DNA of 64,000 nucleotides, taken from positions 128,001-192,000 of the forward strand of contig CAWCKJ010000003.1 of the NCBI GenBank assembly GCA_963796105.1, read 5' to 3'. This document shows positions 39,812-56,706 of the stretch, piece by piece (the stretch's first letter is position 1; every line of letters begins with the position of its first letter). The position numbers and the translations under genes were made by a program. The notes under the pieces were generated by a model, which made no database searches, was not told the origin of the DNA, and worked only from the letters and a program-made list of their open reading frames with translations. Origin of the DNA: a candidate division FCPU426 bacterium (GTDB lineage Bacteria > Oederibacteriota > Muellerivitia > Muellerivitales > Muellerivitaceae).

Positions 39812-42115
39812 ATGGATCTGCAAGAAATCCTTAATTCCATGGTGAATAAAAAGGCTTCAGACGTCCATTTGAAGGCGGGCGCCCCCCCTCTTTTCCGCAT
39901 TGACGGCGATTTAATCCCCCAAAGTGAAACCATTCTTTCCGCGCAGGAATTGGCGGAAGTCGCGTCTTATTTGATGGATGAGAAGCAGCAAAAACTGTTT
40001 TTCGAGGACCACCACGAGGTCGACCTGGCTTACGCCGTGGAGGGTTTGGCCCGTTTCAGGACGAACGCCATGTGGCAGAGGGGTCTTCCGGAAATCATCA
40101 TGCGGGTTATTCCCCAGATCGTCCCGCGGATTGAGGACATCAACATGCCGACCTCGGTGTTGAAGCAAATCGCCATGGAACCCCGAGGGTTGGTCCTGGT
40201 CACGGGAATAACGGGTTCAGGGAAATCAACCACCCTCGCGGCCCTCATCCACGAGATCAACGTGAACCGCTCCGCCCATATCGTGACCGTTGAAGATCCC
40301 ATCGAGTTTGTCCACCAGGACGCCAAATCCAGCATGACTCAAAGGGAGGTGGGACTAGACACTGAAAACTTTAAAACGGCCTTGAAATTCGTGTTGCGGC
40401 AGGACCCCGATGTCATACTTATCGGGGAAATGCGCGACGTGGAGACGGTCCAGGCCGCCATTACGGCCGCAGAAACCGGCCATTTGGTGTTTTCCACCCT
40501 GCATACTATGGATACCATTCAAACGATAGAGAGAATTTTGGACTTTTTCCCGCCCGATCAGCAAAACCAAATGAGGATCCAGTTATCCAATACCTTGCGA
40601 GCCGTTATCTCTCAACGCTTGGTTTCTAAGGCCGACGGCGCCGGTGTCGTTCCAGCCTGTGAAATCATGGTCGTGACACCCACCATCAAATCCCTTATCG
40701 CCGATGATAAAATCAGCTCGATTCGCGGTTATATCGCGGAGGGTCATAGCCAATATGGAATGCAGACTTTCGACCAATCCTTGATCGAACTGGTTCGAAA
40801 GGGCTTCATTACCCGGGAAAGCGCCATGGAACAGGCCACGTCCCCCAGCGAAATTGATCTTGGGTTGAAGGGGATTTCATCCTCCAAGGCCTCCGCCCAG
40901 TCCTTGATTTCACAAATGGAGACTTCTCAACAAAAAGAGCGGGTTTCCGGCTGGCTAAAGCGGGCGCAGGATCTTTATGAAAGAAGGCGCAATGACGAGG
41001 CAAAAGCGGAGCTAAAACGCATTCTGCAGGAAATGCCGGAACATAAGGAGGCGAACGCGCTGATGGCCCGTTTGCGTGAAATGGAGGACAAAACCGACAA
41101 GAAAAAAGACGCCTCATCCTCGGTTAAAACCGCTCTTCAATTGTACCGGGAAGGCAAGTTCCAGGCCGCTATCCTGGAATTTCAAAAAGCCTTGGAAATA
41201 GACCCGGGAAACAAGCAGGCCGAAGCTTATATCCGCTCCATTCAAACCGAAATGGACAACCGCGTTCGCGCGAGGGAGTTTGTCCAGGCTGGGATGCAGA
41301 AACAACAGCAAAATGACATGGTGTCCGCCCTGAGCCAATTGGAACAAGCGCTCATTTTGGATCCTGATAATGAGCAGGCGCAGGTGCTGCAAAAGGACAT
41401 TAAAAACACTCTTCAAAAGGACCAAGCCAGGGAAAAAGCCAAGGAACAAAACCAAATCGCCATTGATTTATACAAGGCGGGTGATTTACTGGGCGCTCTA
41501 GTCGCATGGAATAAGGCCTATGAGCTGAATTCCGAGCTGGAAGAAGTCTCGCGCTATTTGCAGCAGGGGATCGCCAAACTTCTGTCCTTCGGGGTGGAAG
41601 GGCTTGAGGGAAATCCGGAAACCCAGAACATCCTAGCGCTCTTTGAGCAGGGAGTTCGGAGTTACGTGCGAAGCGATTTCCAGACCGCGATTGAGTTTTT
41701 TAAAAAAGCCCTCGCCAAGGCCGACGGCAACGCCTATTTAAACGCCTACCTGCAAAAGTCCCTGCAGATGGAGGAACAGCAAGTCGAAGAATTGTTCCAT
41801 GAGGGTTTAAAGGCCCAGGAGTCGGGCGACTTGGCCGCGGCGCTAAAAGAGTACAATAAGATCTTGAGGCTCTCGCCGGGGCACCCGGAAACCGTGAAAC
41901 AACTCGGCGTCTTAAAAGCGACGATTCAGCAGAAAACCGAGGCTTTGTACACCGAGGGTAAAGTTTATTTCGACCAGAATGACATGGATAAGGCCGTTCG
42001 TATTTGGGAAAAAATACTTTACCTCGATCCTTCCAATGAACGCGCTAAAAAGAAAATTGAAGAAGCAAAAATCAAAAAAAGCACCTTATCCGGTATCTTT
42101 TCAAAGATAAACTAG
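39812..42115 (+). CDS. PilT/PilU-family type IV pilus ATPase fused to a C-terminal TPR array
   Basis: ASDVHL, GITGSGKST, TVEDPIE, DPDVILIGEMRD, TGHLVFSTLH, GMQTFDQ; then about 400 aa of TPRs (FQKALEIDPGN; EQALILDPDN; WEKILYLDPSN). Confidence 0.93.
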   Translation: MDLQEILNSMVNKKASDVHLKAGAPPLFRIDGDLIPQSETILSAQELAEVASYLMDEKQQKLFFEDHHEVDLAYAVEGLARFRTNAMWQRGLPEIIMRVIPQIVPRIEDINMPTSVLKQIAMEPRGLVLVTGITGSGKSTTLAALIHEINVNRSAHIVTVEDPIEFVHQDAKSSMTQREVGLDTENFKTALKFVLRQDPDVILIGEMRDVETVQAAITAAETGHLVFSTLHTMDTIQTIERILDFFPPDQQNQMRIQLSNTLRAVISQRLVSKADGAGVVPACEIMVVTPTIKSLIADDKISSIRGYIAEGHSQYGMQTFDQSLIELVRKGFITRESAMEQATSPSEIDLGLKGISSSKASAQSLISQMETSQQKERVSGWLKRAQDLYERRRNDEAKAELKRILQEMPEHKEANALMARLREMEDKTDKKKDASSSVKTALQLYREGKFQAAILEFQKALEIDPGNKQAEAYIRSIQTEMDNRVRAREFVQAGMQKQQQNDMVSALSQLEQALILDPDNEQAQVLQKDIKNTLQKDQAREKAKEQNQIAIDLYKAGDLLGALVAWNKAYELNSELEEVSRYLQQGIAKLLSFGVEGLEGNPETQNILALFEQGVRSYVRSDFQTAIEFFKKALAKADGNAYLNAYLQKSLQMEEQQVEELFHEGLKAQESGDLAAALKEYNKILRLSPGHPETVKQLGVLKATIQQKTEALYTEGKVYFDQNDMDKAVRIWEKILYLDPSNERAKKKIEEAKIKKSTLSGIFSKIN

Positions 42116-42225
42116 ATTCCCTTTTTTGCTTGACGTTTTTGCCACAAACAGTTGTTTTCTTTTCAAGCGTCCATTAAGTTACTGGTGACGCGCAAGCTAC
42201 AAGAGGGGAATTAAAAGGAATTAAA

Positions 42226-42624
42226 ATGAAAAAATTGATCATAGGCATCTTGATATTAATCGGCTTCTTTTTTATGGCCCTTAATACATCCATGCTCGCT
42301 GACCAGGCGTTGAAATGGGTGCAGGAAAATCCCAAGGATCCGCATGCTCCTAAAGTCCTATATGAAGCTGCCCGTTGGTGCGACATCATGGGCGACAATA
42401 AAAAAGCTTTGGAGGTTTATTGGGATCTTTACCAACAATATCCCGGCAGTTCCTCCCTCTGCGCCGCGTCTCTCTATTACAGCGCTCAAATCCAGGTGGA
42501 TACGAGTGTTTCGAAAAAACTCGCGGATCCTTTTTTGAAGATTATATTAGACCAGTATTTTAGCGAGACTGAGTGGGTGGAAAAAGCCAGAAAGTTACAG
42601 GACGAGGTGAATTATGTTCGCTGA
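42226..42624 (+). CDS. Small membrane-anchored TPR-like protein
   Basis: N-terminal hydrophobic helix; P..P.APKVLY, ALEVY..LYQQYPGS, IILDQY. Confidence 0.6.
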   Translation: MKKLIIGILILIGFFFMALNTSMLADQALKWVQENPKDPHAPKVLYEAARWCDIMGDNKKALEVYWDLYQQYPGSSSLCAASLYYSAQIQVDTSVSKKLADPFLKIILDQYFSETEWVEKARKLQDEVNYVR

Positions 42625-43588
42625 AAAGAATAAATATATTGGTTTGGCCGGTTTGGTCTGCCTGATAAGCATGGGTTTGGCTTCATCAGGGATTTGTAAA
42701 ACCACCGAGGGGGAGGATGAAAATGACCACCTATCCCCGCCCCCTACCCCTATATCCGCTGATCGATACCGAAAAATGAATCAGGCGGATCAAGAAAAAT
42801 CCGTTAAAACGCTGAAAACCGCCAAGAAGGAAAAATCGGAAGTTTCATCCGCAACCTCCCCCGCCGCCCAGGTAAGGGCGGGGGATAATATAAGCGTCTA
42901 TTATTTCACGAAAGCTGGTTTTGTAATAACACAGCCATCCCAATTACCTTCATTGGGTAAAGTGGTTGGGGACCTTAGCGAGACGAACGCCTCCGGCCCG
43001 GGCGTTTTAAGTTACAGCCAAGCGAAAAAACCTTATATTGAATATTCCTCCAAGGCTGAGTTAAATATAGACGATTTACTGGTTGTTTATTCGATTTCTC
43101 CGGAAAATATTAATGAACCCGAATCGAATTTTTCCGGTTTTCTGGTTGAAAACAGGGCTATCGTAAAGGTGATTTCTGTCCAAAAGAAGTATTGCCAAGT
43201 GGAGATCGTTAAATCCTTCGTTGCTTTTCACGCGGGAGACCGTGTCCGGCCATACAGCGATGAGCTTCAAAGATGGACAAAGGCTCAAACTAAAAAACCA
43301 CTTCCCTCAAATGAAATCCATTGTTATGTATGCGGTGGAGAGGTTCAAAAAACAGCTTATTCCCAGTCGGATTTCATCATCTTGACCGCCGGCACGAACA
43401 AGGGTGTGGTTGAGGGACAAGTATTTCATCTAAAACAATTAGTTAAGAACGTGGAATTGAGGGAGGATCTTCATGCCTTCCGGGGTTCGGCGCGCGTATT
43501 TTTCGCGGGATCCAATTACTCCATGGCCCAAATTCTTTCCAGCAACGAATCCATCCAAAAAGGGTTTGAGGCGGTTTACAATCCCTGA
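42614..43588 (+). CDS. Exported protein with TsaP/FlgT-C-like beta domains
   Basis: Signal peptide, low-complexity linker, IVKSF..FHAGDRV, DFIILTAGTNKGVVEGQVF, SMAQILSS.E.I.KG. Confidence 0.45.
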   Translation: MFAEKNKYIGLAGLVCLISMGLASSGICKTTEGEDENDHLSPPPTPISADRYRKMNQADQEKSVKTLKTAKKEKSEVSSATSPAAQVRAGDNISVYYFTKAGFVITQPSQLPSLGKVVGDLSETNASGPGVLSYSQAKKPYIEYSSKAELNIDDLLVVYSISPENINEPESNFSGFLVENRAIVKVISVQKKYCQVEIVKSFVAFHAGDRVRPYSDELQRWTKAQTKKPLPSNEIHCYVCGGEVQKTAYSQSDFIILTAGTNKGVVEGQVFHLKQLVKNVELREDLHAFRGSARVFFAGSNYSMAQILSSNESIQKGFEAVYNP

Positions 43589-43611: not shown

Positions 43612-44469
43612 ATGGATTCCTTGAAAAACAAAACAGTTGAAGAAGACCCCTTTTTTTTAAAGATTCTTGAACATGTATTGGCCGAAAAAGGATTCGACGG
43701 CACGCATTACAAAATCAATTATATCAAGAGAAGGGTGGCAGTCCGAATGCGGGCATCCGGAACCCGCGATTACTTGGAATATTATCAGGCGTTAAAAAAA
43801 AACCGGGATGAAGTATCACTGCTGTTTGACCGTTTTACCATTCATGTGACGGATTTTTTCAGGGATGCCGAAGTTTACAATTCCATGAAGTTAAAAGTAC
43901 TTCCTGAAATTTTTCGGCAACCGGGATCCAGCCTTAAGATTTGGTGCGCCGGATGCAGCACGGGGCAAGAGCCTTATTCCATCGCCATCACTTTGAGGGA
44001 AAACAGCCCCAAGTACGCGGAGAAGAATATTAAAATCATCGCCACCGATATTGACGATGCCAGCATTCGTTTTGCCGAGCGGGGGACCTATCCCATTGCT
44101 TCACTGAAAAAACTCTCGAGCCAACAAATGAGCAAGTGGTTTTTGAACGAGGGGGAAAAAGCGCGCATATCCCAGGAATTGAGGGACTCGGTAAGGTTCA
44201 AAACGCATGATTTACTTGGACGTTGGGATTCGGATTTTTCGGATTTTAACCTTATATTATGTAGGAATCTCCTTATTTACCTTTCGGCGGTCCGCCAGCA
44301 AAAACTTTATCAAGGGTTTCACAAAGCATTGCGTCCGGATGGGTATTTGATTCTTGGTTTGACGGAAACATTAATGGGCGGGGCTCGTGAATTATTCCGC
44401 TGCGTTGACGTGAAGAACCGAATCTACAAAGTTTGCGGTTCAAAAACGCCTTCTGACAGAGGGGCTTGA
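43612..44469 (+). CDS. cheR: Chemotaxis methyltransferase CheR
   Basis: TIHVTDFFRD, IWCAGCSTGQEPYS, ATDID, ILCRNLLIY, LILG.TE. Confidence 0.96.
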   Translation: MDSLKNKTVEEDPFFLKILEHVLAEKGFDGTHYKINYIKRRVAVRMRASGTRDYLEYYQALKKNRDEVSLLFDRFTIHVTDFFRDAEVYNSMKLKVLPEIFRQPGSSLKIWCAGCSTGQEPYSIAITLRENSPKYAEKNIKIIATDIDDASIRFAERGTYPIASLKKLSSQQMSKWFLNEGEKARISQELRDSVRFKTHDLLGRWDSDFSDFNLILCRNLLIYLSAVRQQKLYQGFHKALRPDGYLILGLTETLMGGARELFRCVDVKNRIYKVCGSKTPSDRGA

Positions 44470-44475
44470 GGGAAA

Positions 44476-45657
44476 ATGGATAAGGCACAGGATCATATTA
44501 ATCTCGGAACCGCTTTCACTCTTTCTAAACGGTATGACGACGCGATTGTGGAGTTTAAAAAAGCGCTGGTCTTGAGCCCATCGGATGGTGAAATCCTTTT
44601 TCAATTGGGGGGATTATGCACCAATATCGGGAATTACGAGGAAGCTGAGAATTATTACCACGACGCGCTATCCATCAACCCGATGAATTTAAACGCGCAT
44701 TGCAAATTGGGTTTGTTATTGGAAGTCCAGGGCAAGTACCAGGAATCCATACAAGAATTTCAAAAAGCCACTGAATTGAATCCGACTGACGCGGGCCTTT
44801 ACAACAACCTGGGAAATGTCTATTCGAAAATGGGCAGGTATCAGGAAGCCATTGATCAGTTTAAAAAATACACTGGCATCAATCCGAGCAACGCGGAAAT
44901 TTTCTTCAAAATGGGTTTTTCATTTGAACAGTTGGGCAGGCTTGATGAGGCCATCAACTCCTATGAACGAGCTCTAGTCCTAAATCCCCGACACGCGGCT
45001 GTTTACTCCATCCTGGGAAACGCTTACGCGAAAAAAGGGGATTATCAGGAGGCCATATCGCTTTATCAACAGGCCCTTCGATTAAATCCTCAAGAGCCGG
45101 AAGTCCATTTAAAATTGGGGGTGGCCTTCATGTCGCTCGGCCAATACGACAAGGCCTTGTCTGTTTTGGAGGAGGCGCGTCAAAAAAACCCGCAGAATGC
45201 CGAGGTTTATTTGAAGTTTGGGATGATTTACGCGGGCCGCGGCCAGCATGAGGAGGCCATTCAAATGTACCGAAAGGTCATGGAGATTAATCCCCATGAC
45301 GCAAGCGTCCATAATGTCTTGGGTTACATTTATGACCGGCAGGGAGACGCGGAAAAAGCCATGGAGGAATACCGCGCCGCCAAACTCATCAACCCCAATG
45401 ACATATTAATCTTGGATAATCTCGGGAACTTGAATTATAAACAAGGCCATTTTGATGAGGCGGCCCAGGATTTCGAGAGCTTGCTTCAATTGAATCCGCT
45501 GCATAGTGATGCCCACGCGAAGCTGGGAAATGTTTATTTAAAGAAAGGCGAAAAGAACAAGGCCGTCACCCACTGGGAAAAAGCCTTGGAACTTGATCCG
45601 TCCAATGAGATCCTCAAGAACAATTTAAGAATTGTCAAAGGAAGTCCCACGGCATGA
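44476..45657 (+). CDS. All-TPR cytoplasmic protein (about 11 repeats)
   Basis: Continuous 34-aa repeats (NNLGNVY, A..LNP); no signal peptide. Confidence 0.92.
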   Translation: MDKAQDHINLGTAFTLSKRYDDAIVEFKKALVLSPSDGEILFQLGGLCTNIGNYEEAENYYHDALSINPMNLNAHCKLGLLLEVQGKYQESIQEFQKATELNPTDAGLYNNLGNVYSKMGRYQEAIDQFKKYTGINPSNAEIFFKMGFSFEQLGRLDEAINSYERALVLNPRHAAVYSILGNAYAKKGDYQEAISLYQQALRLNPQEPEVHLKLGVAFMSLGQYDKALSVLEEARQKNPQNAEVYLKFGMIYAGRGQHEEAIQMYRKVMEINPHDASVHNVLGYIYDRQGDAEKAMEEYRAAKLINPNDILILDNLGNLNYKQGHFDEAAQDFESLLQLNPLHSDAHAKLGNVYLKKGEKNKAVTHWEKALELDPSNEILKNNLRIVKGSPTA

Positions 45658-46292
45658 TGAAGACCCAGGAAAAATCCCTCGGTGAATTATTGCGTCAGGC
45701 TGGGAAAATCACCTCCCGCCAAATTCAAGTGGCGTTATCGGAACAAAAAATAACCCATGAACCCATTGGGAAAATTCTTGTTTCACTTGGTTTTGTGGAG
45801 GAGAGGGATATTTTGCAGGTCATGGAAGGCATGGTGGTATTGACGTTCCGCATGGATAAAGAGCTGTTCGGGGTGGAAACTTTCCGCGCGCGAGAGGTCT
45901 TGAAATACACTGTATTAAAACCATTTGAAAATAAAGTTGGAAATTGGGAAGGGCATCTTGCCCTTCGCGGTGAGGAAATCCCAGTTTTGTCATTCAGGAA
46001 ATTCCTTGAGGTTCCCGCGACGGGTCCCGTGGAACGGAGCTGGTTCATTATCCTTGAGAAAAAGGGGAGGCCTTTCGCCCTTTGGGTGGACGAGGTCAGG
46101 GAAGTAACCCGCTTTAAAATCGATCAAATCGAGCCGGTTCCGCTTTATCTTTTGGGAAAAAAAACAGAATTGTATTATTGTTTAGGTAAAATAAAAGATG
46201 ACCTTTACTCGATCATCAATCCGGATAATTTAGTGGAAGATGTTCCCGAAAAGCCGCCGTTAATTGGAAAAAACCATGCCAGCTCAACCTGA
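45654..46292 (+). CDS. CheW with N-terminal MshEN-like domain
   Basis: SLGELLRQAGKITSRQIQVALSEQ + PIGKILVSLGFVEERDI; then CheW (LFGVE...REV, GHLALRGEEIPV, ALWVDEV). Confidence 0.8.
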   Translation: MMKTQEKSLGELLRQAGKITSRQIQVALSEQKITHEPIGKILVSLGFVEERDILQVMEGMVVLTFRMDKELFGVETFRAREVLKYTVLKPFENKVGNWEGHLALRGEEIPVLSFRKFLEVPATGPVERSWFIILEKKGRPFALWVDEVREVTRFKIDQIEPVPLYLLGKKTELYYCLGKIKDDLYSIINPDNLVEDVPEKPPLIGKNHASST

Positions 46293-48486
46293 AACAAAAA
46301 CCATCCGTGAATTAGCCCACGGAAGCGATCAAGGCGACGCGTCCACCCACAATAATTTGGGGGTTTTTTATTATTCCAAGGGCATGTACGCGGAAGCTAT
46401 CAAGGAATTTAAAACTGCGCTTGAGATCGATCCCGAGAACACCCAAGCATTGGAGAATCTGAAGGCCGTCAACCGGCACACGGGCCTTTACGACCGTTCG
46501 ATTGAAGCCTACAAAAAATCGACCCAAATGTTTCCATCGGATTCCGAGGCTAGTTATAACCTCGCCAATTCCTACCGGTATACGGGTCAATATGAAAAAG
46601 CAATCGTTGAATACCAGAAAACCATCGCCTTAAATCCAGAACATCCTTTCGCTAGAAACTACCTTGGTATCACTTACAAGTGCACGGGCCAGTTGGAGGA
46701 GGCCATTAAGGAATTCAAGAAAGCCATCGATGACAACCCCTATTACGCTGATCTTCATAACAATTTAGGCGAGGTTTATTACAAAAAAGCCATGTTGAAT
46801 GAGGCTCTCGTTGAGTTTAAAAAGGCCATTTCTCTTAACCCTGACTATGCCATCGCGCACTACAACTTGAGCTTCGTTTATGGCGATAAGAACATGCTGG
46901 AAGAGGCCGAGAGGGAGTTCAAGAAAGCGGTGGATTTGAACCCTAATTTCGGGCAGGGAGCGCAGGCGCTTTTGTCGATTGAGCGCGCGAAAAGCATGGA
47001 GGAGAAAGTCGCCGAGAAAATCGCTTCCGCCCCCCCCGCTCCCTCCGTGGAAACATACCTTAGTTTAGCGTCCGCTTACAGCGGGAAAGGACTCCTGGAT
47101 GAGGCCATCAGGGAATATAAAAGAGCCATTGAGGCCATGCCGAATGAGGAAAAATCCTACCGGGCTTTGGGTGAAATCTACCTACAGAAGGGCCTGATCG
47201 AGGACGCGTTAATGTCGTTCCAGAAGGCTATCGATATTTCACCCACCGACATCGAGAACTATATACAGCGGGGGATAGCCCTTCGGGAATTGAACCGTTG
47301 CGACGAATCGGTGAGCGAGTTTAAAAAAGCCATAGAATTAACGCAGAATTCCAGCAAGGCTCATTTTGAGATGGGAGTCACCTACTTCAAAATGGGTGAA
47401 ACTGAAAATGCCACGAGGGAAATTAGAAAAGCCCTGGAAATAGACCCTGAGAACGCTGAGGCGCATTATTATCTTGGCGTTTACTATTACAAAGTCAATC
47501 TTTACGACGAGGCCATCCGGGAGATCACCCAGGCCGTGGAGTTGGACGTCTCCATCGCCTCAAGCGCTGAGGCCCTTATTTATTTGGGATTGGCCCTGGC
47601 TGACAAAGGCCGTTTTGAGGAAGCCATCGCAGAGTATAAGAAGGCGATGGAATTGGACCCTAAAAACCCGATTATCCATAATAGTTTGGGAGTGGCCTAT
47701 AAAAACGCCGGAATGATCGATGATGCCATCCAGCATTATCAGAAGGCCATTTCCATCAACCCTCAATACGCCAAGGCCTATAATAATTTGGGAGTTGTTT
47801 ATTTTAAAATGAGCCAATATGAGAAAGCGATCGAAACATTCAAAAAAGCTGTCGAAATAGAGCCGGAATATAAAACGGCTCAAAATAACCTTTCAGTGGC
47901 CATGAAAAAGCGGATCGTTCTTTCCGAGGCATCGGAGGTTTTGATTAAGCAAATTATGGCTGACCCGGAAAATTATGCCTTGCATCAAAACCTCGGCATG
48001 CTTTACAAAAATACGGGGCAACACTCGGAAGCCGTACGCGAGTTCCAGGAAACCATACGCTTGAATCCGAAAAACCGGGAAGCTTTAACCCAACTCGGCG
48101 ACACTCATCTCCTGCTGGGGCATTTGGATGAAGCTGTCAAGGTGCTGGCTAAGGCAATTTCCTGCGACCCTACCCATCCGGACGCGCATATGCAATTGGG
48201 CAAGGTTTATATCCAACGCCAATGGTGGGATGAGGCTTTGGTTGAGTTCAAAAAGAGCCTGGAAGGAAATAAGAATTCCCCGGAGGTATATTATTATCTC
48301 GGCCAAGTCTACCGGTTCAAAGGCTGGTGGGACGACGCCATCCAAAAAATGCAAATGTACCTGGATTCAGCCAATACCGAGGAGGACAAGGTCATACAGG
48401 CCATCGATATCATCCAGCAAATCCAAGTTTGGCGAAAAGAACTCCAAGTTTCCCCGAGCGGGGACAAGGCGAAATATATAAAATAG
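46276..48486 (+). CDS. Large all-TPR cytoplasmic protein
   Basis: Roughly 18-19 TPR repeats (HNNLGVFYY, AYNNLGVVY, A..LNP). ATG 46276 preferred over TTG 46264. Confidence 0.92.
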   Translation: MPAQPETKTIRELAHGSDQGDASTHNNLGVFYYSKGMYAEAIKEFKTALEIDPENTQALENLKAVNRHTGLYDRSIEAYKKSTQMFPSDSEASYNLANSYRYTGQYEKAIVEYQKTIALNPEHPFARNYLGITYKCTGQLEEAIKEFKKAIDDNPYYADLHNNLGEVYYKKAMLNEALVEFKKAISLNPDYAIAHYNLSFVYGDKNMLEEAEREFKKAVDLNPNFGQGAQALLSIERAKSMEEKVAEKIASAPPAPSVETYLSLASAYSGKGLLDEAIREYKRAIEAMPNEEKSYRALGEIYLQKGLIEDALMSFQKAIDISPTDIENYIQRGIALRELNRCDESVSEFKKAIELTQNSSKAHFEMGVTYFKMGETENATREIRKALEIDPENAEAHYYLGVYYYKVNLYDEAIREITQAVELDVSIASSAEALIYLGLALADKGRFEEAIAEYKKAMELDPKNPIIHNSLGVAYKNAGMIDDAIQHYQKAISINPQYAKAYNNLGVVYFKMSQYEKAIETFKKAVEIEPEYKTAQNNLSVAMKKRIVLSEASEVLIKQIMADPENYALHQNLGMLYKNTGQHSEAVREFQETIRLNPKNREALTQLGDTHLLLGHLDEAVKVLAKAISCDPTHPDAHMQLGKVYIQRQWWDEALVEFKKSLEGNKNSPEVYYYLGQVYRFKGWWDDAIQKMQMYLDSANTEEDKVIQAIDIIQQIQVWRKELQVSPSGDKAKYIK

Positions 48487-48493
48487 GGGCACA

Positions 48494-48832
48494 ATGAAAC
48501 TACTTCTTTGCATCATTCCTCCCAAAAAGATCGAGCAAGTCAAAAAAGCATTGTGGGAAGCGGGAGTCAGGGGTGTTACGCTATCGGAAGGGTCGGGCTA
48601 TGGATATCAAAAGGTCCAAGTCGATTCAGTCCGCGGGACGGATTATAAAGTACAGTATCAGGAACGTATCCGTTTGGAAATTGTTTTGCCGGATGAGGAT
48701 GTTGAAAAGGTCATTGAGCTGCTGCTTGAAAACATCCGGACTGGGAGGATCGGCGACGGAAAAATTTTTGTTATTCCGGTCGAGGAAGTTGTGCGGGTGC
48801 GGACTGGCGAAAGAGGGGAAAGCGGTTTGTAA
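48494..48832 (+). CDS. P-II family signal transduction protein (divergent GlnB/GlnK)
   Basis: 112 aa, ungapped to GlnB: G.G.QK, RG..Y51, TGRIGDGKIF, RVRTGE. Confidence 0.95.
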   Translation: MKLLLCIIPPKKIEQVKKALWEAGVRGVTLSEGSGYGYQKVQVDSVRGTDYKVQYQERIRLEIVLPDEDVEKVIELLLENIRTGRIGDGKIFVIPVEEVVRVRTGERGESGL

Positions 48833-48912: not shown

Positions 48913-49275
48913 GTGGCCCAACGTGTTTTAATCGTGGATGACGCCTCGTTCATGCGGATGATGCTGAAAAATATCTTAGCCGGTGCGGGTTATGAGATAG
49001 CCGGAGAGGCTGAAAACGGCGCGAAAGCGATTGAGCAGTATATGGCCTTGAAGCCGGATTTAATCATCATGGACATCATCATGCCTGAAATGGGGGGCAT
49101 CGACGCGGTCCGGCAAATCATCAAGAACGTACCGAACGCGAAGATCCTTATTTGCAGTTCCATGGGCCAGCAATCCTTAGTGGTTGAGGCCATCCAAGCC
49201 GGGGCAAAAGACTATATTGTGAAACCATTCCAACCCTCTAATGTGCTGGAAGCGGTTAAAAAAGCGTTGGCCTGA
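48913..49275 (+). CDS. cheY: CheY response regulator
   Basis: VDDASFMR, MDIIMP, SSMGQ, KPF; Bacillus/Thermotoga-type CheY; GAGGAGG RBS with GTG start. Confidence 0.93.
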   Translation: MAQRVLIVDDASFMRMMLKNILAGAGYEIAGEAENGAKAIEQYMALKPDLIIMDIIMPEMGGIDAVRQIIKNVPNAKILICSSMGQQSLVVEAIQAGAKDYIVKPFQPSNVLEAVKKALA

Positions 49276-49331
49276 TAAAGGGTTTTTTGATCCAGTCTGA
49301 ATGAAAAACTCCGGAATAAGGGGTAAACCTT

Positions 49332-49967
49332 ATGGGCAAGGAATTCGAGTCGTTCTCGGAACTTCAACTTGACGCTTTGAGGGAAATTGGAAACGTGGGA
49401 GCGGGTAACGCCGCGACGGCCCTTTCGCAAATGGTCGGCCAGCCCATTGAAATGTCTGTGACGAGAGTCAAGGTCCTGCCCACGGAAGAAATAGCGAAAT
49501 TCCTGGGCGGCATGGAAAAAAACGTGGCCGCTGTGTACTTGCCCATATACGGTGATATCTCAGGCGTGGTACTTATCTTTTTTCCCATCGAGATCCTTCC
49601 GGGCCTAGCGGTATTTTTACTTCAAAAAGAAATCACGAGTTCCGATCTTAACGAGTTGGACCGCTCGGCCATCAAGGAATTGGGCAGTATCCTGACGGGC
49701 GCCTATTTGAGCGCCCTGTTCCGTTTTATCCAGGTCCAAATGATCCATGGCGTCCCGACCCTCGTGGTGGATATGGCCCAAGCCATCCTGGACACGGTCT
49801 TGGTGGATCTGGAGCAAAAAGAGGAGATTGCGATAGTGATTGAAACGGAGTTTTTGGAAAAGGAAAGGAAAATAACAGGCAGCTTTTTTCTTTTACCCGA
49901 AACCGGCGCCTTGGAAAGGTTTTTTGCCTCATTTTCCAAATCCTTTGGATCTTCCGGTAATGCATGA
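49332..49967 (+). CDS. cheC: CheC phosphatase
   Basis: DALREIGNVGAGNAATALSQ; second site SAIKELGS. Confidence 0.93.
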   Translation: MGKEFESFSELQLDALREIGNVGAGNAATALSQMVGQPIEMSVTRVKVLPTEEIAKFLGGMEKNVAAVYLPIYGDISGVVLIFFPIEILPGLAVFLLQKEITSSDLNELDRSAIKELGSILTGAYLSALFRFIQVQMIHGVPTLVVDMAQAILDTVLVDLEQKEEIAIVIETEFLEKERKITGSFFLLPETGALERFFASFSKSFGSSGNA

Positions 49968-50445
49968 AACCGATTGGGTTGTAGGAATCGCCGAAATCAG
50001 GACGGCTAAAAGCCCGGACCGGCTTGTGGCCTATGGCTTAGGCTCCTGTGTCGGTATCGCGTTATATGATCCCCTCCTCAAACTGGGAGGTTTGGCGCAC
50101 CCCATGCTGCCCTCGAGCCGGTTTCATCCATTGTCAAAATCCAAGGGAAAATTCGTGGACTCGGCACTTGAGGAGCTTATTCATCAAATGGTGGGGGAGG
50201 GAGGTGAAATAAGCCGATTTCAAGCCAAACTGATCGGTGGCGCGAACATGTTTAACTCTATCATAAAAACACCTCTCACCATTGGTGTCCGCAACGCGAT
50301 GGCGGCCAGGGAGGTACTGGGAAACCGCCAAATATCGATCGTCGGGGAGGAAGTAGGCGGAACCCAAGGCCGGACCGTTTATTTCTCATTGTCTGATGGG
50401 ATGGCGCAAATCCGGAAGTTTAACCAAGAGGATGTGCGTATTTAA
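49960..50445 (+). CDS. cheD: Chemoreceptor glutamine deamidase CheD
   Basis: GLGSCVGI, AHPMLP, KFVD, AKLIGGANMF, IGVRN, GG..GRT. ATG 49960. Confidence 0.95.
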   Translation: MHETDWVVGIAEIRTAKSPDRLVAYGLGSCVGIALYDPLLKLGGLAHPMLPSSRFHPLSKSKGKFVDSALEELIHQMVGEGGEISRFQAKLIGGANMFNSIIKTPLTIGVRNAMAAREVLGNRQISIVGEEVGGTQGRTVYFSLSDGMAQIRKFNQEDVRI

Positions 50446-50582
50446 TTCAAGCGACTGTTAAGGGAAAACCTTTTTTCGGCTGTAGGGTTTGCGGGGGATC
50501 AAAACCCATTTGAACTTTTGTTGATTTTTCGTTTATTCGAATAAACTTTGCCGCTCAACCAGGATTATTGGGGAAAAATCAA

Positions 50583-51089
50583 ATGACGATGGACAATTCA
50601 AGCGAAACACAAACGTTAGACTTGGCCGCTGGACAAAATCAAGTGATTGTTTTTGAGCTTTCGGGATGTTTGTTCGGATTGGATATCCTGCAGGTTCTTG
50701 AAATTATCCGTTTGGTAGAGATGACATTAGTCCCCAAGACGCCAGCGTTCTTAGAGGGGATCATTCACTTGAGGGGAAAAATCATTCCGGTCATGGATTT
50801 GAAAAAACGCTTTGGTTTGCCGCTTGCTGATTATTGCCAGGAAAGCCGGATTCTTATCGTGCAATGGCAAGATCAAACGATGGGTTTTTTAGTGGACAAG
50901 GTATTGGAGGCAGGCCGTGTTTTTTCGAAGTCGGTCATTCCGGTGAAGGAGCCCATTCTCGACATAAACCCTATTTATCTGGAGGGCCTCATAAGCTGGA
51001 AGGGAAAAACGGTTTTGATGATCAAGCTGGAAAAAGTTTTTTGGGCTGAAAAGTGGAAGGGAAATTCTGAATACGAAATGAATATTTAG
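50583..51089 (+). CDS. cheW: CheW adaptor
   Basis: VIVFEL, FGLDI..V.EI, VPKTP.FLEGIIHLRGKIIPVMDL, GFLVDKV. Start uncertain (50568/50583/50589). Confidence 0.93.
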   Translation: MTMDNSSETQTLDLAAGQNQVIVFELSGCLFGLDILQVLEIIRLVEMTLVPKTPAFLEGIIHLRGKIIPVMDLKKRFGLPLADYCQESRILIVQWQDQTMGFLVDKVLEAGRVFSKSVIPVKEPILDINPIYLEGLISWKGKTVLMIKLEKVFWAEKWKGNSEYEMNI

Positions 51090-51102: not shown

Positions 51103-51465
51103 TTGACCTACCGCGTCTTATTTGTCGACGATTCGTCTTTCATGCGCACCATATTGAAAGGTATCATCCTGAAGGAACCTTATGTTCTGGCGGGGGAAGC
51201 CTCAAACGGAAAAGAGGCCTTGGAAATTTTTAAGCGTGAGAATCCGGATCTCATCACGATGGATATTGTTATGCCGGAGATGGATGGCATTGAAACCGTG
51301 CGTCAAATACGGGAAATTAAACCTGACGCTAAAATTATTATGGTGAGCGCCATGGGCCAGCAGAGCATGGTCATTGAGGCCATTCAGGCGGGAGCGAGAG
51401 ATTTCATCATCAAGCCCTTCCAGCCGCCGCGCGTCCAAGAAGCCTTGAAAAGAGTCATGGGTTAA
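51103..51465 (+). CDS. cheY: CheY response regulator (second copy)
   Basis: VDDSSFMR, TMDIVMP, SAMGQ, KPF; AGGAGG RBS with TTG start. Confidence 0.93.
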   Translation: MTYRVLFVDDSSFMRTILKGIILKEPYVLAGEASNGKEALEIFKRENPDLITMDIVMPEMDGIETVRQIREIKPDAKIIMVSAMGQQSMVIEAIQAGARDFIIKPFQPPRVQEALKRVMG

Positions 51466-51500
51466 GATTCTGGAACACATAATAATTTTAAAGGAATCTC

Positions 51501-52610
51501 ATGCCCAGTGAATTGATTCCGCCGGTACGAGTTCTTGTCGTGGACGACTCGTTTTTTATCAGGAAAATGTTATCTGAAATTCTCGGGGCGGCTGGAAACA
51601 ATATTATAGTGGTGGATACGGCTCAAGATGGGATCGAGGCCATCCATAAACTGAAAACACTCAAACCGGACGTGATTACGCTTGATGTGGAGATGCCCAA
51701 ATTAAACGGCATTGATACGCTGGAACGGATCATGAGTGAGAATCCGACTCCGGTAATTATGCTTTCGAGCCACACCGGAAAAGGAATGGAAATCACGCTT
51801 CGCGCCCTTGAAATCGGGGCGGTCGATTGCGTTTTAAAACCATCGGCAAAGCCGATGGTGGATTTAAGGGGCATCGAGCGTGAATTGATCGAAAAAATAA
51901 GAATGGCCGCCCTTTGCCGTCCCCGCCACGGTTTATTGTCTTTTGGGGGAATAGCGGCCGACGTTTTAAGGCCTGTGCCGGAGAAATCATCGCTCCCCAA
52001 TATGAGTAAAGCCGTTGCCGAGCGGCCCGCGAAGTTTTTAGTCGCCGTCGCCTCGTCGACGGGCGGTCCGAGGGCCTTGAATGAGCTTTTTTCGAAGATC
52101 GAACCGGAGCCCGCCACTTCCTTTCTCATTGTCCAGCATATACCGGTCGGGTTTACAAAGGCTTTGGCGAAAAGGCTTCAGGAAATCAGCGCCATGAAAA
52201 TCACCGAGGCGGCAAACGGTGAGATGATTCTAGCGGGTCACGCATATGTGGCGCCAGCCGGGAATCATTTAACGGTTGAGGGGAACCCCGGCCATTTCAG
52301 GTTTATCTTGAATGATTTACCCCCGCATTTGGGGGTAAAACCTTCCGCGGATATCCTCATGATTTCCGTGGCGCGAGCGTCGGGTAACCAGTGCGCGGGT
52401 GTGGTTTTAACCGGGATGGGCCATGATGGCACCGCGGGATTAAGGGAGATCCGTTCCGCGGGAGGCAAAACTTTCGCCCAGGACGCCGACAGTTGCGTGG
52501 TTTACGGCATGCCGAAATCCGCTTATGAATCGGGGGTCGTGGATCGCCAATTGACTTTGGACCGCATGGCGATAGAGTTGAACGCCTTAGCCGGGGGATT
52601 AAAAGATTGA
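51501..52610 (+). CDS. cheB: Chemotaxis methylesterase CheB (REC + esterase)
   Basis: TLDVEMP receiver; SSTGGP, VQHIP, LTGMGHDG, VYGMP. Confidence 0.97.
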   Translation: MPSELIPPVRVLVVDDSFFIRKMLSEILGAAGNNIIVVDTAQDGIEAIHKLKTLKPDVITLDVEMPKLNGIDTLERIMSENPTPVIMLSSHTGKGMEITLRALEIGAVDCVLKPSAKPMVDLRGIERELIEKIRMAALCRPRHGLLSFGGIAADVLRPVPEKSSLPNMSKAVAERPAKFLVAVASSTGGPRALNELFSKIEPEPATSFLIVQHIPVGFTKALAKRLQEISAMKITEAANGEMILAGHAYVAPAGNHLTVEGNPGHFRFILNDLPPHLGVKPSADILMISVARASGNQCAGVVLTGMGHDGTAGLREIRSAGGKTFAQDADSCVVYGMPKSAYESGVVDRQLTLDRMAIELNALAGGLKD

Positions 52611-52717
52611 CACCTTCAATTGACCGGCTGATTTCAGACCCCGGCCAAGCGGCGACCTGAAGGGTCGTCCCGTAACCGGAGGGTTTATTTGTATTTAAGC
52701 TTTTTGGAGGATGGGCC

Positions 52718-54799
52718 GTGAAAGAAATGGAATATAAAGAAATCTTTCTTAATGAGGCGAGGGAATATTTGTCCAATCTCAATAACTCCCTCGTGATTTT
52801 AGAGAAGGATCCGAGCCAACAAGAGGCTATCCGGGAAATATTCCGTGTCGCCCATACCTTGAAAAGCATGTCCGCGACCATGGGCTACGAGCCCATGTCT
52901 AGGCTCACGCACCAAATAGAATCCGTCATGGAACCCATCCGTTCGGGCTTGAAACCCCTTTCCCCCAAATTGGTTGACGCTCTTTTTATCTGTTTGGACC
53001 AACTTGAGGCTTGGGTCAAGGCCCTCGAGACCCAGGATGAGATTATTGAGGAGGGCTTGGAAGAAAAAATCAAAATGCTCGCGGATAACGGCGGGGAAAA
53101 CCCCGTTGACTTTTTCCCGGCAACCGAGGAAACGCGCCCCCTTAAGGAAACTGATCTTTTCAAATTAACAGAGTCCGAGGAGGAAGTTATCTCCCAAGCG
53201 CGGATGAGCGGTTTTTACGTTTACCAGATTAAAATCGAGCTGGACCCGGAATGCGTTTTTAAGGAAGCGAGGGCCTTTCTGGTGCTTCGGAATGTCAATG
53301 AACTCGGCGAAATTGTCAAATCCAGCCCCTCGTCGAAGGACTTGGAAAAAGCCAAATTTGACAGGGAGTTTTATTTGATTGTGGTTTCGGAGAAGACCCA
53401 GGAAATAATGAAAAGCGCGATCATGGGAATTTCTGAAATTCGGCAAGTGTTTGTTGGGGAATACCATCCCGGGTTGAAAACCGAGAGGGGGGATTCGCTT
53501 CACGATGCGGAGTTATCCCGCAAAGATATCAAGCGTGATGACGCCCATTTGCCTGAGGAAAAATCGTTCAATCTTCCCACTGTCAGGGTCCACACGTCAA
53601 AATTGGACAAACTCATGGCTCTCGTCCAGGAACTCATGATCTCGAAAAGCCGTTTTGAGCAAATTATCCATACACGGGATTTGAAAGAACTCAATGACCC
53701 CCTCTCCAGGTTAAGCTTTGTCACCGATGAGCTGCAGGATGAAATCATGAAAGTGAGGCTCATCCCGGTGAAACATATTTTTGAGAGGTTTCCCCGCATG
53801 GTCCGGGACCTGTCGAAAACCCTCGACAAAAAAATAAACCTGGAAATCGAGGGCGCGGAAGTGGAGCTGGACCGCTCCGTCATCGACGAAATCAGCGAAC
53901 CCATCGTTCACTTGCTTCGTAACGCCATCGACCATGGCATCGAGAATTCTGAGGTGCGAATCAAGGAAAGGAAAGAGGCTTTTGGCACTATCCGTCTTCA
54001 AGCCAAGCGGGACCGGTCTTATGTGGTCATTTCCGTGACCGATGATGGAAGAGGGATCGATCCGGAAAAGGTGCGCCTGACCTCTATCGCCAAGGGGCTG
54101 GTCTCGGCGGAAGAGGCCGGCAAAATGACCGACGAGGAGGCCCTGCGGTTGATCTGTCTCCCGGGCTTTTCCACGGTGGAAAATCCCACGGAGATCTCGG
54201 GGCGCGGAGTCGGGGTGGAAGTCGCCAAAACCAGGGTGGAGGCGATGGGAGGGAGTTTCAAGATCATCAGCCGGAAAAACCAGGGAACCACAATGATTCT
54301 CCGCTTCCCGTTGACTTTAGCTATCATCAAGGTCCTATTCGTGAAATGCCTCGAGGAAACATTCGCGATCCCGGTCGCGAGCGTAGTGGAAACGATTGAT
54401 TTGACCCAGGCGGAAATTAAGGTCGTGCAGCAGCAGGAAACATTTGTCCTGAGGGACGAAGTCATCCCTATATACCAGCTTTACGAATTGCTGGATTTGG
54501 ACGGGAAATCCGCCGCCAAAGAGCCGGCTGAATATGAGTCCCTTATAGTCGTGGAGGTGGGAGACTCAAGAATCGGCATTAAGGTTGACCTTGTTTTGGG
54601 CCAGCAAGAAGTTGCTATAAAATCGCTGGATAAGACTTTAAAGGGCATCAGGGGATATTCCGGGGCGACTATTTTAGGGAATGGGAGAATCGCCCTCGTT
54701 TTAGACGTGAACGGGTTAGTGGAAGACCTTAAGGATCGGCGGCTCAGGCTGGAATTCCCATTGCTTAAGAAAGGAGACTCCCATGCTGCCCAATCTTGA
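52718..54799 (+). CDS. cheA: Chemotaxis histidine kinase CheA (P1-P2-P3-P4-P5)
   Basis: FRVAHTLKSM, P2 domain, RMVRDL, HLLRNAIDHG, DDGRG, PGFST, SGRGVG, GATILGNG. Confidence 0.97.
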   Translation: MKEMEYKEIFLNEAREYLSNLNNSLVILEKDPSQQEAIREIFRVAHTLKSMSATMGYEPMSRLTHQIESVMEPIRSGLKPLSPKLVDALFICLDQLEAWVKALETQDEIIEEGLEEKIKMLADNGGENPVDFFPATEETRPLKETDLFKLTESEEEVISQARMSGFYVYQIKIELDPECVFKEARAFLVLRNVNELGEIVKSSPSSKDLEKAKFDREFYLIVVSEKTQEIMKSAIMGISEIRQVFVGEYHPGLKTERGDSLHDAELSRKDIKRDDAHLPEEKSFNLPTVRVHTSKLDKLMALVQELMISKSRFEQIIHTRDLKELNDPLSRLSFVTDELQDEIMKVRLIPVKHIFERFPRMVRDLSKTLDKKINLEIEGAEVELDRSVIDEISEPIVHLLRNAIDHGIENSEVRIKERKEAFGTIRLQAKRDRSYVVISVTDDGRGIDPEKVRLTSIAKGLVSAEEAGKMTDEEALRLICLPGFSTVENPTEISGRGVGVEVAKTRVEAMGGSFKIISRKNQGTTMILRFPLTLAIIKVLFVKCLEETFAIPVASVVETIDLTQAEIKVVQQQETFVLRDEVIPIYQLYELLDLDGKSAAKEPAEYESLIVVEVGDSRIGIKVDLVLGQQEVAIKSLDKTLKGIRGYSGATILGNGRIALVLDVNGLVEDLKDRRLRLEFPLLKKGDSHAAQS

Positions 54800-55397
54800 T
54801 GACTTGACTTTGGCCCAGCTGGACGCGTTGAAGGAAGTCGGCAATATAGGCGCGGGCCATGGAGCGACAGCCCTATCCCAGCTCCTGCGTAAAAAAATAT
54901 TGATTACGGTCCCCAAGGCGAATGTCCTGCCGATCGAGGATGTGCCGAAATTAATGGGGGATCCCAATACCCTGGTGGCCGGCTTGATCTTGAATATTCT
55001 CGGCGACGCGACCGGTAAGATCATTCTTTTGTTCCCCCGGGACTCGGCCCTGCATTTGGCGGATTTGCTGTTAAAACAGGAAATCGGGACAAGCATGATC
55101 CTGACCGAAATGGGGCACTCCGCCATCAAGGAGGCCGGGAATATCCTTACGGGGGCTTACTTAAGCGCGTTAAACGAGTTTTTGGGAATGCTCTTGTTGA
55201 TTTCCGTTCCCACCCTGGTGTTTGACATGGCTGGGGCTCTTTTGAGAACCATCACCCAGGGGATGGAAGATGTCACGAAAGTCATTTGCATAGAAACCCA
55301 ATTTATTGACGCGAACGAGGTGGTGGCGGGATATTTTATTTTGGCCCCGGACGCGACATCCTTGAGGGCCATATTCCAGGCCATAAAGCTGAAATAA
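54783..55397 (+). CDS. cheC: CheC phosphatase (second copy)
   Basis: DALKEVGNIGAG and SAIKEAGNILTG. Confidence 0.93.
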   Translation: MLPNLDDLTLAQLDALKEVGNIGAGHGATALSQLLRKKILITVPKANVLPIEDVPKLMGDPNTLVAGLILNILGDATGKIILLFPRDSALHLADLLLKQEIGTSMILTEMGHSAIKEAGNILTGAYLSALNEFLGMLLLISVPTLVFDMAGALLRTITQGMEDVTKVICIETQFIDANEVVAGYFILAPDATSLRAIFQAIKLK

Positions 55398-55623: not shown

Positions 55624-56706
55624 ATGATCTCCAACCAAATCATAGCGGCAAAAATCCAAATGTCCTTGAATCAATCAAAGTTGAATAGGACCCATTTAGT
55701 ATCCTGCTGCAGGGAAATTCTTGATAATTTCAAGTTCGACAGTGTTTTTCTTTGCCACTCCCCTTCGCCTGAGGCCGAATTGAAAAAAATCGCTTTTGAG
55801 GGCAAGGAAGAGATCATGGACGCCTGTATTTACCGCCTGGGAGTGGAAGAAAGGCTGGCCTTGACGAGGCTTTCGTATAAGACCTACACGGATATTACCG
55901 GAAAGCCCCTGTTCAATAAATCGGGGTCATTGAGGATTCAAAAACCCAACAGCGGGATTTACTTGGTCCATTTTCAGCCCAATAAGGATTTTTTAATATT
56001 CGGCTGCGCTCACCAGGAGCCGAGGACTTATGACTCATCCATCCTGAACGACTTGATCAGCGTTTGGAACTCGACAAAAGAAGGTTTGTGCGACGCGGCG
56101 CGGAAGGTACAAGGCTTGCCGGCGGACAATATAAAAAACTCGAGTCCGAATCCCCCGGCCCAAACTACGCAGACGAATTTGGATTTGAAATTGCCTGCTC
56201 CGCCATCAAGCCCCTTGAAAAACAAGCACCGTAAACCAGCGCTTCTGGTGGATGAGGTCACTAAACTGTTCAACAAGGATTATTTTGAGGATTGCCTGGC
56301 CATCGAGGTGGAAAGGGCGAAAAGGTACTCCAGGAATCTCAGCCTTTTGTTTTTAAGCGTGACGCCTTTGAGTCAAACGGCCCAAAACGAGAATGAAATA
56401 GCCCTTCAAATTTCGGAGATCCTTTCCCTGAGCCTGCGCCGGGTGGACGTGATTTGCAGGCTGGAAAAAAACAAATACGCCTTGATATTGCCTGATACCT
56501 CCACCAGTACCTATGGGACCATCGCGAAGCGTATTTTCAAGCATTTCAAGGAGGTGATGGGGGCAACCCCTCCCGTGTTCATCAACGTCAGCGCGTCGTC
56601 CTACCCGAAACACGCCGATAATCACCTCTCCTTGCTGCAAAATACCGAAAAACTTTTAACTCAGGCTAGAACCGCGGGCCCGAATAAGGCGGTCCTGCCG
56701 GAATAA
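55624..56706 (+). CDS. Degenerate GGDEF-domain protein with intact RxxD I-site
   Basis: DEVTKLFN...EVERAKRY..LSLL; RRVD followed five residues later by EKNKY in place of GGDEF; DxDxFK absent. Confidence 0.85.
   Translation: MISNQIIAAKIQMSLNQSKLNRTHLVSCCREILDNFKFDSVFLCHSPSPEAELKKIAFEGKEEIMDACIYRLGVEERLALTRLSYKTYTDITGKPLFNKSGSLRIQKPNSGIYLVHFQPNKDFLIFGCAHQEPRTYDSSILNDLISVWNSTKEGLCDAARKVQGLPADNIKNSSPNPPAQTTQTNLDLKLPAPPSSPLKNKHRKPALLVDEVTKLFNKDYFEDCLAIEVERAKRYSRNLSLLFLSVTPLSQTAQNENEIALQISEILSLSLRRVDVICRLEKNKYALILPDTSTSTYGTIAKRIFKHFKEVMGATPPVFINVSASSYPKHADNHLSLLQNTEKLLTQARTAGPNKAVLPE

Follow-up and report, generated by a model that had tools for sequence, protein, structure and literature searches.

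Can c-di-GMP enter a chemosensory pathway at CheW, the protein that couples the kinase CheA? The question is raised by a single gene in the window, which is the whole stretch of 64,000 nucleotides analyzed here from a candidate division FCPU426 bacterium (contig CAWCKJ010000003.1, positions 128,001 to 192,000). The original prediction, made from the sequence alone, read this gene as two tandem MshEN motifs fused to a divergent CheW, and suggested that c-di-GMP could gate CheA without a receptor. The fusion proved to be real and widespread. The reading that we tentatively prefer, although we put it slightly below an even chance, is a dispensable second CheW that carries an MshEN-type pocket and docks on 44H receptors, where c-di-GMP would tune the receptor-kinase array.

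The fusion gene and its fold

The gene and its two domains are located as follows.
45654..46292, + strand: MshEN_N-CheW fusion gene, 212 aa (Pfam, NCBIfam, AF2 model, orthologues)
45675..45833, + strand: MshEN_N four-helix module, residues 8-60 (NF053729, alignment to 5HTL and PilF, conservation counts)
45837..46241, + strand: CheW domain, residues 62-196 (Pfam; receptor-contact residues E81, V82, R105, V148 and V151 conserved)

The fusion gene and the TPR gene before it overlap start-to-stop in ATGA, and an AGGAAG-type site lies 9 nt upstream of the start. The two motif peptides quoted in the original prediction were located at residues 7-31 and 36-57, and both halves of the proposed fusion were recovered by profiles. 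NF053729, the NCBIfam model for an MshE-related c-di-GMP motif, matched residues 9-58 with 57.7 bits (cut-off 38), and Pfam CheW (PF01584) matched residues 62-196 with 76.4 bits (cut-off 23.5). The HMM scan that had been suggested as a check was thus positive for these two models and negative for the Pfam T2SSE_N/MshEN model, which gave no match to the fusion at E<=0.01. Sequence matches were to PilF, MshE (5HTL) and CheW structures, and an Atlas search with residues 1-62 gave no usable match.

In the AF2 model (pLDDT 84.4, pTM 0.76), helices are predicted at residues 9-15, 21-34, 38-44 and 50-58, with CheW strand 1 directly after them at 60-67, and MshEN_N is joined to CheW without a linker. 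Overlaid on the V. cholerae MshEN structure (5HTL), the model deviates by 0.9 A across 52 columns, with a Foldseek probability of 1.00 but an E of 0.02; its CheW part matches TtCheW (2QDL) at 2.0 A. Profile and superposition together place the tandem 24-residue motifs in a 53-residue four-helix bundle. As a check on chance, the motif regex was run against the 16,031 ORFs of the genome and matched three, one of them a spurious off-frame ORF, while the HMM matched only the fusion gene and two PilB genes in the whole genome. A chimera or assembly artefact is ruled out by the presence of the fusion in 65 genomes. The MshEN-type fusion and its fold are therefore confirmed.

Gene neighbourhood and distribution

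The fusion lies within a cassette of chemosensory genes, all on the same strand.
39812..42624, + strand: pilT/U-TPR fusion and small TPR protein, co-directional upstream, also in cassette-less relatives
42614..43588, + strand: TsaP homologue, no LysM domain detected, flanking the cassette on the left (profile against PDB, fold match)
43612..44469, + strand: cheR methyltransferase, first che gene of the cassette
44476..45657, + strand: TPR393, all-TPR protein of 393 aa, directly upstream of the fusion
46264..48486, + strand: TPR740, all-TPR protein of 740 aa
48494..48832, + strand: PII protein, conserved member of the cluster
48913..50445, + strand: cheY1, cheC1, cheD
50568..51089, + strand: plain cheW, receptor and CheA faces both conserved
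51103..55397, + strand: cheY2, cheB, cheA (Hpt-P2-dimer-ATPase-P5), cheC2
55624..56706, + strand: degenerate GGDEF protein with EKNKY replacing GGDEF and RxxD at canonical spacing, last cassette gene in the window's family

TsaP is a type IV pilus secretin-associated protein, and the homologue at the left flank matched the TsaP of 3JC8 by profile (E 1.1e-27) and 6VE2 by fold (E 6e-6). A promoter and terminator scan stayed at chance level (19 vs 18.5 and 22 vs 26.9). Gene order was compared in 40 of the 64 other fusion loci and is conserved as cheR-TPR393-fusion-TPR740-PII-cheY-cheC-cheD-[receptor]-cheW-cheY-cheB-cheA-cheC. TPR393 is directly upstream of the fusion in 40/40 of these loci, and TPR740 does not adjoin it in six. 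Where the operon splits, cheR-TPR393-fusion remain together; in families f8 and f9 cheA-cheC is found elsewhere, a few genes after pilQ-aroC-aroK (6/6 loci examined). A complex prediction for CheR, TPR393 and c-di-GMP with the fusion as partner scored 0.00, which is uninformative either way.

Full-length or near-full-length fusions are present in 65 of 99 genomes of one uncultured phylum and in 15 of its 23 families, the relatives being labelled Candidatus Goldiibacteriota or candidate division FCPU426. The profile behind this tally was built from 40 homologues, the counted rows start at profile positions 1-3 with E<=2.5e-28, and the tally includes one genome (G060) in which the fusion gene is broken at an assembly gap. 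In a quick tree, a branch with support 93 separates the fused CheW domains from the plain CheW proteins of the same clusters, which is consistent with one origin of the fused domains. Among the matches listed (150 of 25,656 and 120 of 194, both lists biased to this family), none is a fusion from outside the phylum, and independent fusions may exist there.

The pattern of loss separates the fusion from the rest of the cluster. In genus g31 the cluster is intact except for the fusion gene in 3/3 genomes (84-99% complete), and TPR393, TPR740, cheR and PII all persist. Since g31 has deleted the fusion alone, the fusion is accessory and the plain CheW belongs to the core; the latter (50568..51089) is likely the core coupling protein. 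TPR393 as an obligate partner of the fusion is weakened by its retention in the same genus. The whole cassette is absent from two relatives within the window's family, where the tsaP-like gene joins dprA directly; they belong to genus g2, in which the fusion is found in 0/3 genomes and the sensor-less receptor is missing along with the cassette in 3/3. Among the 40 aligned loci there is no case in which CheW was kept and the module dropped. With 18 candidates scored per genome, the pilT-TPR gene was ruled out as a co-varying partner: it is present in five cassette-less genomes (G044, G046, G074, G041 and G042), and among the 15 f8/f9 genomes, of which 11 carry the fusion, it turned up in just one.

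The putative ligand pocket

Residue numbers in the module equal those of V. cholerae MshE minus 1, and conservation was assessed in 177 collected homologues, of which 170 are full-length, with some positions counted in 140 representatives. L9, G10, I24, L28, Q31, I38, G39, I53 and M57 are kept in the module, and R9, R38 and Q61 of MshE are replaced by S8, P37 and M60. The first two replacements agree with the original prediction, which had noted Ser or Pro for the signature Arg; it overlooked that the second motif also lacks its terminal Gln, at Met60, the first residue of CheW strand 1. The equivalents of MshE Gly11 and Gly40 (G10 and G39) occur in 170/170 sequences, as do L28 and K/R40, and Q31 (MshE Gln32, the terminal Gln of motif I) occurs in 169/170. 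The turn glycines are less fixed, with G17 in 160/170 and G46 in 157/170. The MshE triads L10/L54/L58 and L25/L29/L39 become L9/I53/M57 and I24/L28/I38, respectively, and are hydrophobic in all representatives listed.

The altered positions are just as uniform. At motif I position 1 (MshE Arg9), Ser or Thr is found in 168/170 sequences, and R, K or L in 0/140 representatives. Pro occupies motif II position 1 (MshE Arg38) in 132/140 representatives, with no R, K or L in the fusion, and the terminal position of motif II (MshE Gln61) is M, L, I or V in 140/140 and Gln in none. Three of the motif's ligand contacts are thus altered in nearly all members. A further signature precedes the module.
45666..45674, + strand: N-terminal Q5-x-K7 family signature (Q5 in 169/170, K/R7 in 169/170)
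Q5 and K7 are candidate stand-ins for the lost Gln61 and Arg contacts, as judged from their conservation. The module as a whole is more conserved than the CheW domain, with a mean pairwise identity of 0.54 vs 0.31 in 25 representatives.

Mutational data on related domains allow these changes to be weighed. According to PMC5013675, MshE G11L abolishes c-di-GMP binding, G40I costs 72-fold and Q61A 11.8-fold, and the non-binding XpsE retains the MshEN fold with the glycines and binding residues gone. Since XpsE keeps the fold without Gly11 and Gly40, the fold alone has no need of these glycines. As described in PMC11731258, PilF GSPII-B binds c-di-GMP at 6 nM without the arginines (460 nM as Q218E), and GSPII-C is a binder with Pro at the start of motif II. 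PMC12002112 describes a rebuilt PilF GSPII-A in which Ser replacing the motif-II Arg abolished binding, and N-cap motifs able to hinder c-di-GMP binding. S8-x-x-E11 of the fusion fits a helix N-cap box, which could occupy the guanine-reading backbone NH groups. PilB-type domains in 12 of 30 phylum loci start motif II with E/D-P-L/I-G and retain the final Gln, and domains of this type are the likely donor of the module; the two PilBs of the window genome have Glu at the Gly40 position. Physiologically relevant c-di-GMP binding by the fusion is plausible on this sequence evidence, with the chances about even. We regard the protein as resembling an MshEN receptor grafted on CheW; with three defining residues changed, we stop short of classing it among proven MshEN c-di-GMP receptors.

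A supply of ligand is plausible across the phylum. The window genome has 11 strong GGDEF matches, and at least one GGDEF match is found in 98/99 phylum genomes, so that GGDEF presence does not discriminate and permits, but does not favour, a c-di-GMP input. In both relatives' loci that were inspected, the gene before cheR encodes an HD-GYP protein, and the degenerate GGDEF protein at the end of the cassette is, through its RxxD, a possible c-di-GMP receptor. In GGDEF enzymes that make cGAMP, the Hypr signature is marked by a Ser; this residue was found in 0/12 GGDEF domains inspected from the window genome.

The alternative that survives best is that the module does not bind nucleotide and instead keeps a conserved protein-contact surface, likely recruiting CheR/TPR, PII or a pilus component to receptor tips. 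Although possible, we consider it rather unlikely. It would account for the lineage-wide loss of the stacking residues and Gln61 together with the fixation of a new Q-x-K-S N-terminal signature, and for a fusion set between two all-TPR genes and kept with CheR and TPR393 on operon splits; non-binding MshEN-type domains are also known (XpsE and PilF GSPII-A). However, the turn glycines vary more than do the glycines that read guanine and the Gln that binds phosphate, and both TPR genes, cheR and PII outlast deletion of the fusion, so none of them depends on it. A remodelling of the pocket for 3'3'-cGAMP, pGpG or another guanine nucleotide appears improbable. The asymmetric changes, with one Gln kept, one lost and a new invariant Gln, would fit such a shift, and MshEN binds cGAMP weakly according to PMC5013675, but both guanine-reading Gly-X backbone sites are kept and the genome's GGDEF domains lack the Hypr-type Ser.

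Receptor and kinase faces of the CheW domain

The receptor-contact and CheA interface-1 positions of E. coli CheW, as published in PMC13098124, were mapped onto the fusion via alignment. Column identity in each set was compared with the domain mean, and the plain CheW from the same genomes served as internal control. In 16 fusions of the window's clade the receptor-contact set had a column identity of 0.72 against a domain mean of 0.56; this set was above the mean in all four sequence groups, and the equivalents of E38, I39, R62, V105 and V108 are conserved, whereas on this face the V87 and G99 equivalents have become Trp and Ile/Val/Ala, respectively, in the window's clade. The kinase side behaved differently.
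45909..45956, + strand: beta3-beta4 region (residues 86-101), corresponding to the CheA-P5 interface-1 face, which is eroded within the window's clade
In the same 16 fusions, the interface-1 set had a column identity of 0.28 vs 0.56 and was the least conserved part of the fusion's CheW. Across about 100 close homologues, the residues at the canonical LP..P..I.G and G.I.P positions are scattered. The BLOSUM score of this face to plain CheW, a sequence-level comparison, was 0.23 vs 3.4-4.2, and a shuffle of the interface-1 set gave 0/10,000, which is overstated given that the positions are partly contiguous and the sequences related. In comparison, the set equalled the domain mean in 33 other fusions (0.41 vs 0.41), and in the plain CheW no surface is better kept (0.66-0.72 vs a mean of 0.49-0.54). 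The CheA-docking face of the fusion thus appears to be mostly lost in the window's clade; since the erosion is clade-specific, a lack of kinase coupling may not hold phylum-wide. E. coli CheW Ser15 cross-links to receptor tips (PMC13098124) and aligns with Glu58, the last residue of the module, so the pocket would face the receptor.

The window genome encodes four chemoreceptors, none of them inside the window's cluster. In 20/40 relatives' loci the cluster does contain a receptor; it has two TM helices, lacks a periplasmic domain and is of 44H length. The window genome's best-hit counterpart of these receptors is a sensor-less protein of 422 aa (G000:C3:272353-273621) that shows the same three features, the 44H class being judged from an arm length of about 154 residues. 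Best hits and co-loss are the basis of this pairing, and a quick receptor tree leaves an open fork between this receptor and the in-cluster ones. The cluster also retains the receptor-acting proteins CheR, CheB and CheD.

These results bear on two further alternatives. The first, which is very unlikely, is a redundant CheW whose module serves as a structural or vestigial add-on and brings in no regulatory signal. The fusion is dispensable in g31 and part of its CheW surface is decaying in the window's clade, but across 15 families no other part of the protein is as well conserved as the module, which was dropped from a retained CheW in 0/40 aligned loci. Least probable of all is the original proposal of a receptor-independent gate, with the fusion acting on CheA by direct binding, which could draw on the receptor-less cluster of the window and on the seemingly more canonical CheA face of fusions outside its clade, but is contradicted by the conserved receptor contacts and eroded CheA face within the clade, by a cognate 44H receptor that accompanies the cluster (elsewhere in this genome, inside it in 20 relatives' loci) and by the retention of the receptor-acting CheR, CheB and CheD. 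Of the predicted gating of CheA by c-di-GMP, what stands is a possible c-di-GMP input, from the profile, the fold and the pocket conservation.

Likely output of the pathway

The window genome has a basal-body, motor and hook cluster, and no match to Flagellin_N or Flagellin_C. Among 60 good-quality genomes, 47 have the fusion, and flagellin is found in only 8 of these and in none of the other 39; flagellin absence alone is a weak marker for the lack of a flagellum, as FliG-positive genomes, the window's included, are also without it. Five fusion genomes (96-100% complete) lack FliG and FlhA and retain the orthologous CheA and 1-7 receptors. The absence of FliG and FlhA, together with the rarity of flagellin, makes filament-driven swimming unlikely as the shared output. 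By analogy with the Myxococcus Dif system, the remaining guess is a pilus or surface/biofilm behaviour. The pilT-TPR and tsaP neighbours fit a pilus output, but pilT-TPR does not co-vary with the cluster, so the pilus link may be positional, and the contact with a pilus platform that the original prediction offered as its fallback if ligand binding is lost is no more than a possibility. The F1 chemosensory class is characterized by CheA with P2, CheC and CheD, and 44H receptors, all of which are present here; the best class models were CheA_Halo and CheC/CheD Thermotogales, all below cut-off.

A proposed mechanism

In the preferred reading, c-di-GMP tuning by a receptor-docked second CheW, the fusion would occupy CheW sites on the tips of 44H receptors while the plain CheW couples CheA. 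The pocket would bind c-di-GMP with probably micromolar, not nanomolar, affinity, with Q5, K7 and K40 or a partner protein replacing the lost Arg and Gln contacts. As the pocket ends at CheW strand 1, beside the Ser15 position, ligand binding could change receptor docking. Presumably unable to take the kinase-coupling slot, the fusion of the window's clade would compete with plain CheW for receptor sites or cap CheW rings. The activity or cooperativity of CheA would be altered indirectly, through how many CheW sites are productive or how far the rings extend. Given a receptor lacking an outer sensor, signals from inside the cell (the MshEN module, PII and the RxxD protein) may set the state of the pathway, which in a Dif-like system would control surface or pilus/biofilm behaviour and not filament-driven swimming.

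A more specific version of this mechanism seems to us unlikely in its full form, but worth stating. Here a CheW without kinase coupling would act as a c-di-GMP-switched cap, with the ligand held at the junction of module and receptor tip, the receptor or Q5/K7 supplying the missing contacts, and array size and cooperativity set in a non-swimming, Dif-like system with PII input. If true, it would make this cap the first CheW-level effector of c-di-GMP. The fusion is small and soluble and has a natural control in the plain CheW of the same operon, so it can be tested in vitro despite its uncultured hosts. Binding of c-di-GMP without the stacking residues or Gln61 would call for a broader motif in the prediction of c-di-GMP receptors, and a lack of binding would point to a conserved second use of the pocket.

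Comparison with known systems

In agreement with the original prediction, which knew of no characterized example, we found no description of an MshEN-CheW fusion among the open-access papers listed on MshEN, c-di-GMP and CheW/chemotaxis. PMC12943098 does not mention CheW. The table in Wang et al, 2016 (PMC5013675) holds no stand-alone MshEN_N-CheW, CheW appearing there once, inside a CheA architecture. New here are the erosion of the kinase face, the loss of this one gene in g31 and the cassette's boundary between tsaP and dprA.

With MshE (5HTL, PMC5013675) and PilF GSPII-B and -C (8PDK, PMC11731258), the fusion module can be compared residue by residue. It shares with those domains the two 24-residue motifs with a 5-residue spacer and a four-helix fold that superposes at 0.9-1.1 A over 52 columns; the two glycines, the two hydrophobic triads and Gln32 are also common to them. 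Unlike them, it has Ser and Pro at the stacking positions, no Gln61, no MshEN_C subdomain and a new invariant Q5, and is fused to CheW and not to an ATPase. Closer in context are two architectures from Wang et al, 2016, an Aeromonas veronii CheA with an internal MshEN_N and a Geobacter lovleyi (MshEN_N)2-CheX. These also place MshEN_N inside a chemosensory pathway, but on a kinase and a phosphatase, whereas the fusion described here is a CheW adaptor.

At the level of the whole system, the cluster would resemble Myxococcus Dif (DifA/C/E/D/G), by analogy of its parts: a two-TM 44H receptor of about 415-420 aa (413 aa for Myxococcus xanthus DifA, according to PMC3945109), CheW, CheA, CheY and CheC. 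Dif is linked to type IV pili and to the MshEN-bearing PilB, which acts upstream of it in Myxococcus (PMC5544727), and the cluster here has a neighbourhood of pilus genes. It differs from Dif in carrying MshEN on a second CheW and in adding CheR, CheB, CheD, PII and two TPR proteins; CheR-TPR fusions are reported from non-motility pathways.

Finally, c-di-GMP inputs to chemosensory pathways have been described for MapZ-CheR1 of P. aeruginosa (PMC6370697), the PilZ-bearing receptor Cbp1 (PMC6454048) and PlzC-CheX of V. cholerae (PMC12799141). Like the fusion as read here, these are second-messenger adaptors on a chemosensory pathway, but they place PilZ domains on a methyltransferase, a receptor or a phosphatase, and none of the three is at the CheW layer. 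Whereas the known inputs reach receptors, CheR and phosphatases via PilZ, one at CheW would target the lattice of the array itself.

Boundaries and members of the che cassette

The features considered here are as follows, with positions in the window unless a contig (C2, C3) of its own genome, G000, is named.

12021-13451, IS1380-like transposase (match just below the cut-off)
28212-29321, intact GGDEF diguanylate cyclase gene
39812-42115, PilT/PilU ATPase whose C-terminal ~400 aa consist of TPR repeats
42614-43588, TsaP homologue, a previously unannotated gene
55624-56706, degenerate GGDEF protein carrying an RxxD site
G000:C2:264250-270251, second che cluster (CheX-like, CheA, CheW, a shorter receptor and CheY)
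G000:C3:408576-450425, flagellar basal body, motor, export, hook and FlgK genes

The che cassette is situated between the gene for the TsaP homologue, in which no LysM domain was detected, and dprA; in cassette-less relatives these two genes directly adjoin. The PII gene (window 48494-48832) is a near-fixed member, present in the che cluster in 35 of the 40 loci compared, and its nucleotide motifs of the B-loop and C-loop are intact. The degenerate GGDEF gene and the cassette are missing together in two relatives of the same family (G044 and G046). In many families (loci L100-L105, L060 and L068), cheC2 is followed by an FtsA-like gene whose product, ~700 aa in length, is extended far at the C-terminus; in the window's family the degenerate GGDEF gene takes this place. 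At the other end, an HD-GYP phosphodiesterase gene lies immediately 5' of cheR in two relatives' loci (L084:13883-15265 and L073:13897-15324), and similar-sized ORFs occupy this place in many loci of families f15-f23.

Other che and flagellar genes

The second che cluster has a patchy distribution and is adjoined by an IS1380-like transposase. No match to flagellin or FlgL was detectable anywhere in G000, despite its flagellar gene cluster. Among 60 good genomes of the phylum, FliG was matched in 49 and Flagellin_C in only 10; absence of detectable flagellin beside flagellar structural genes is a phylum-wide pattern. In the C3 cluster, flgE is followed by an ORF of 1051 aa for which Pfam gave no match.

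Pilus ATPases

The PilT/PilU-TPR gene is common across the phylum, independently of the che cassette. In both PilB ATPases of G000 (C10:87008-88762 and C4:1523891-1525660), glutamate replaces the motif-II glycine (RLE), which corresponds to the pocket residue Gly40 of MshE, and both may therefore bind c-di-GMP poorly.
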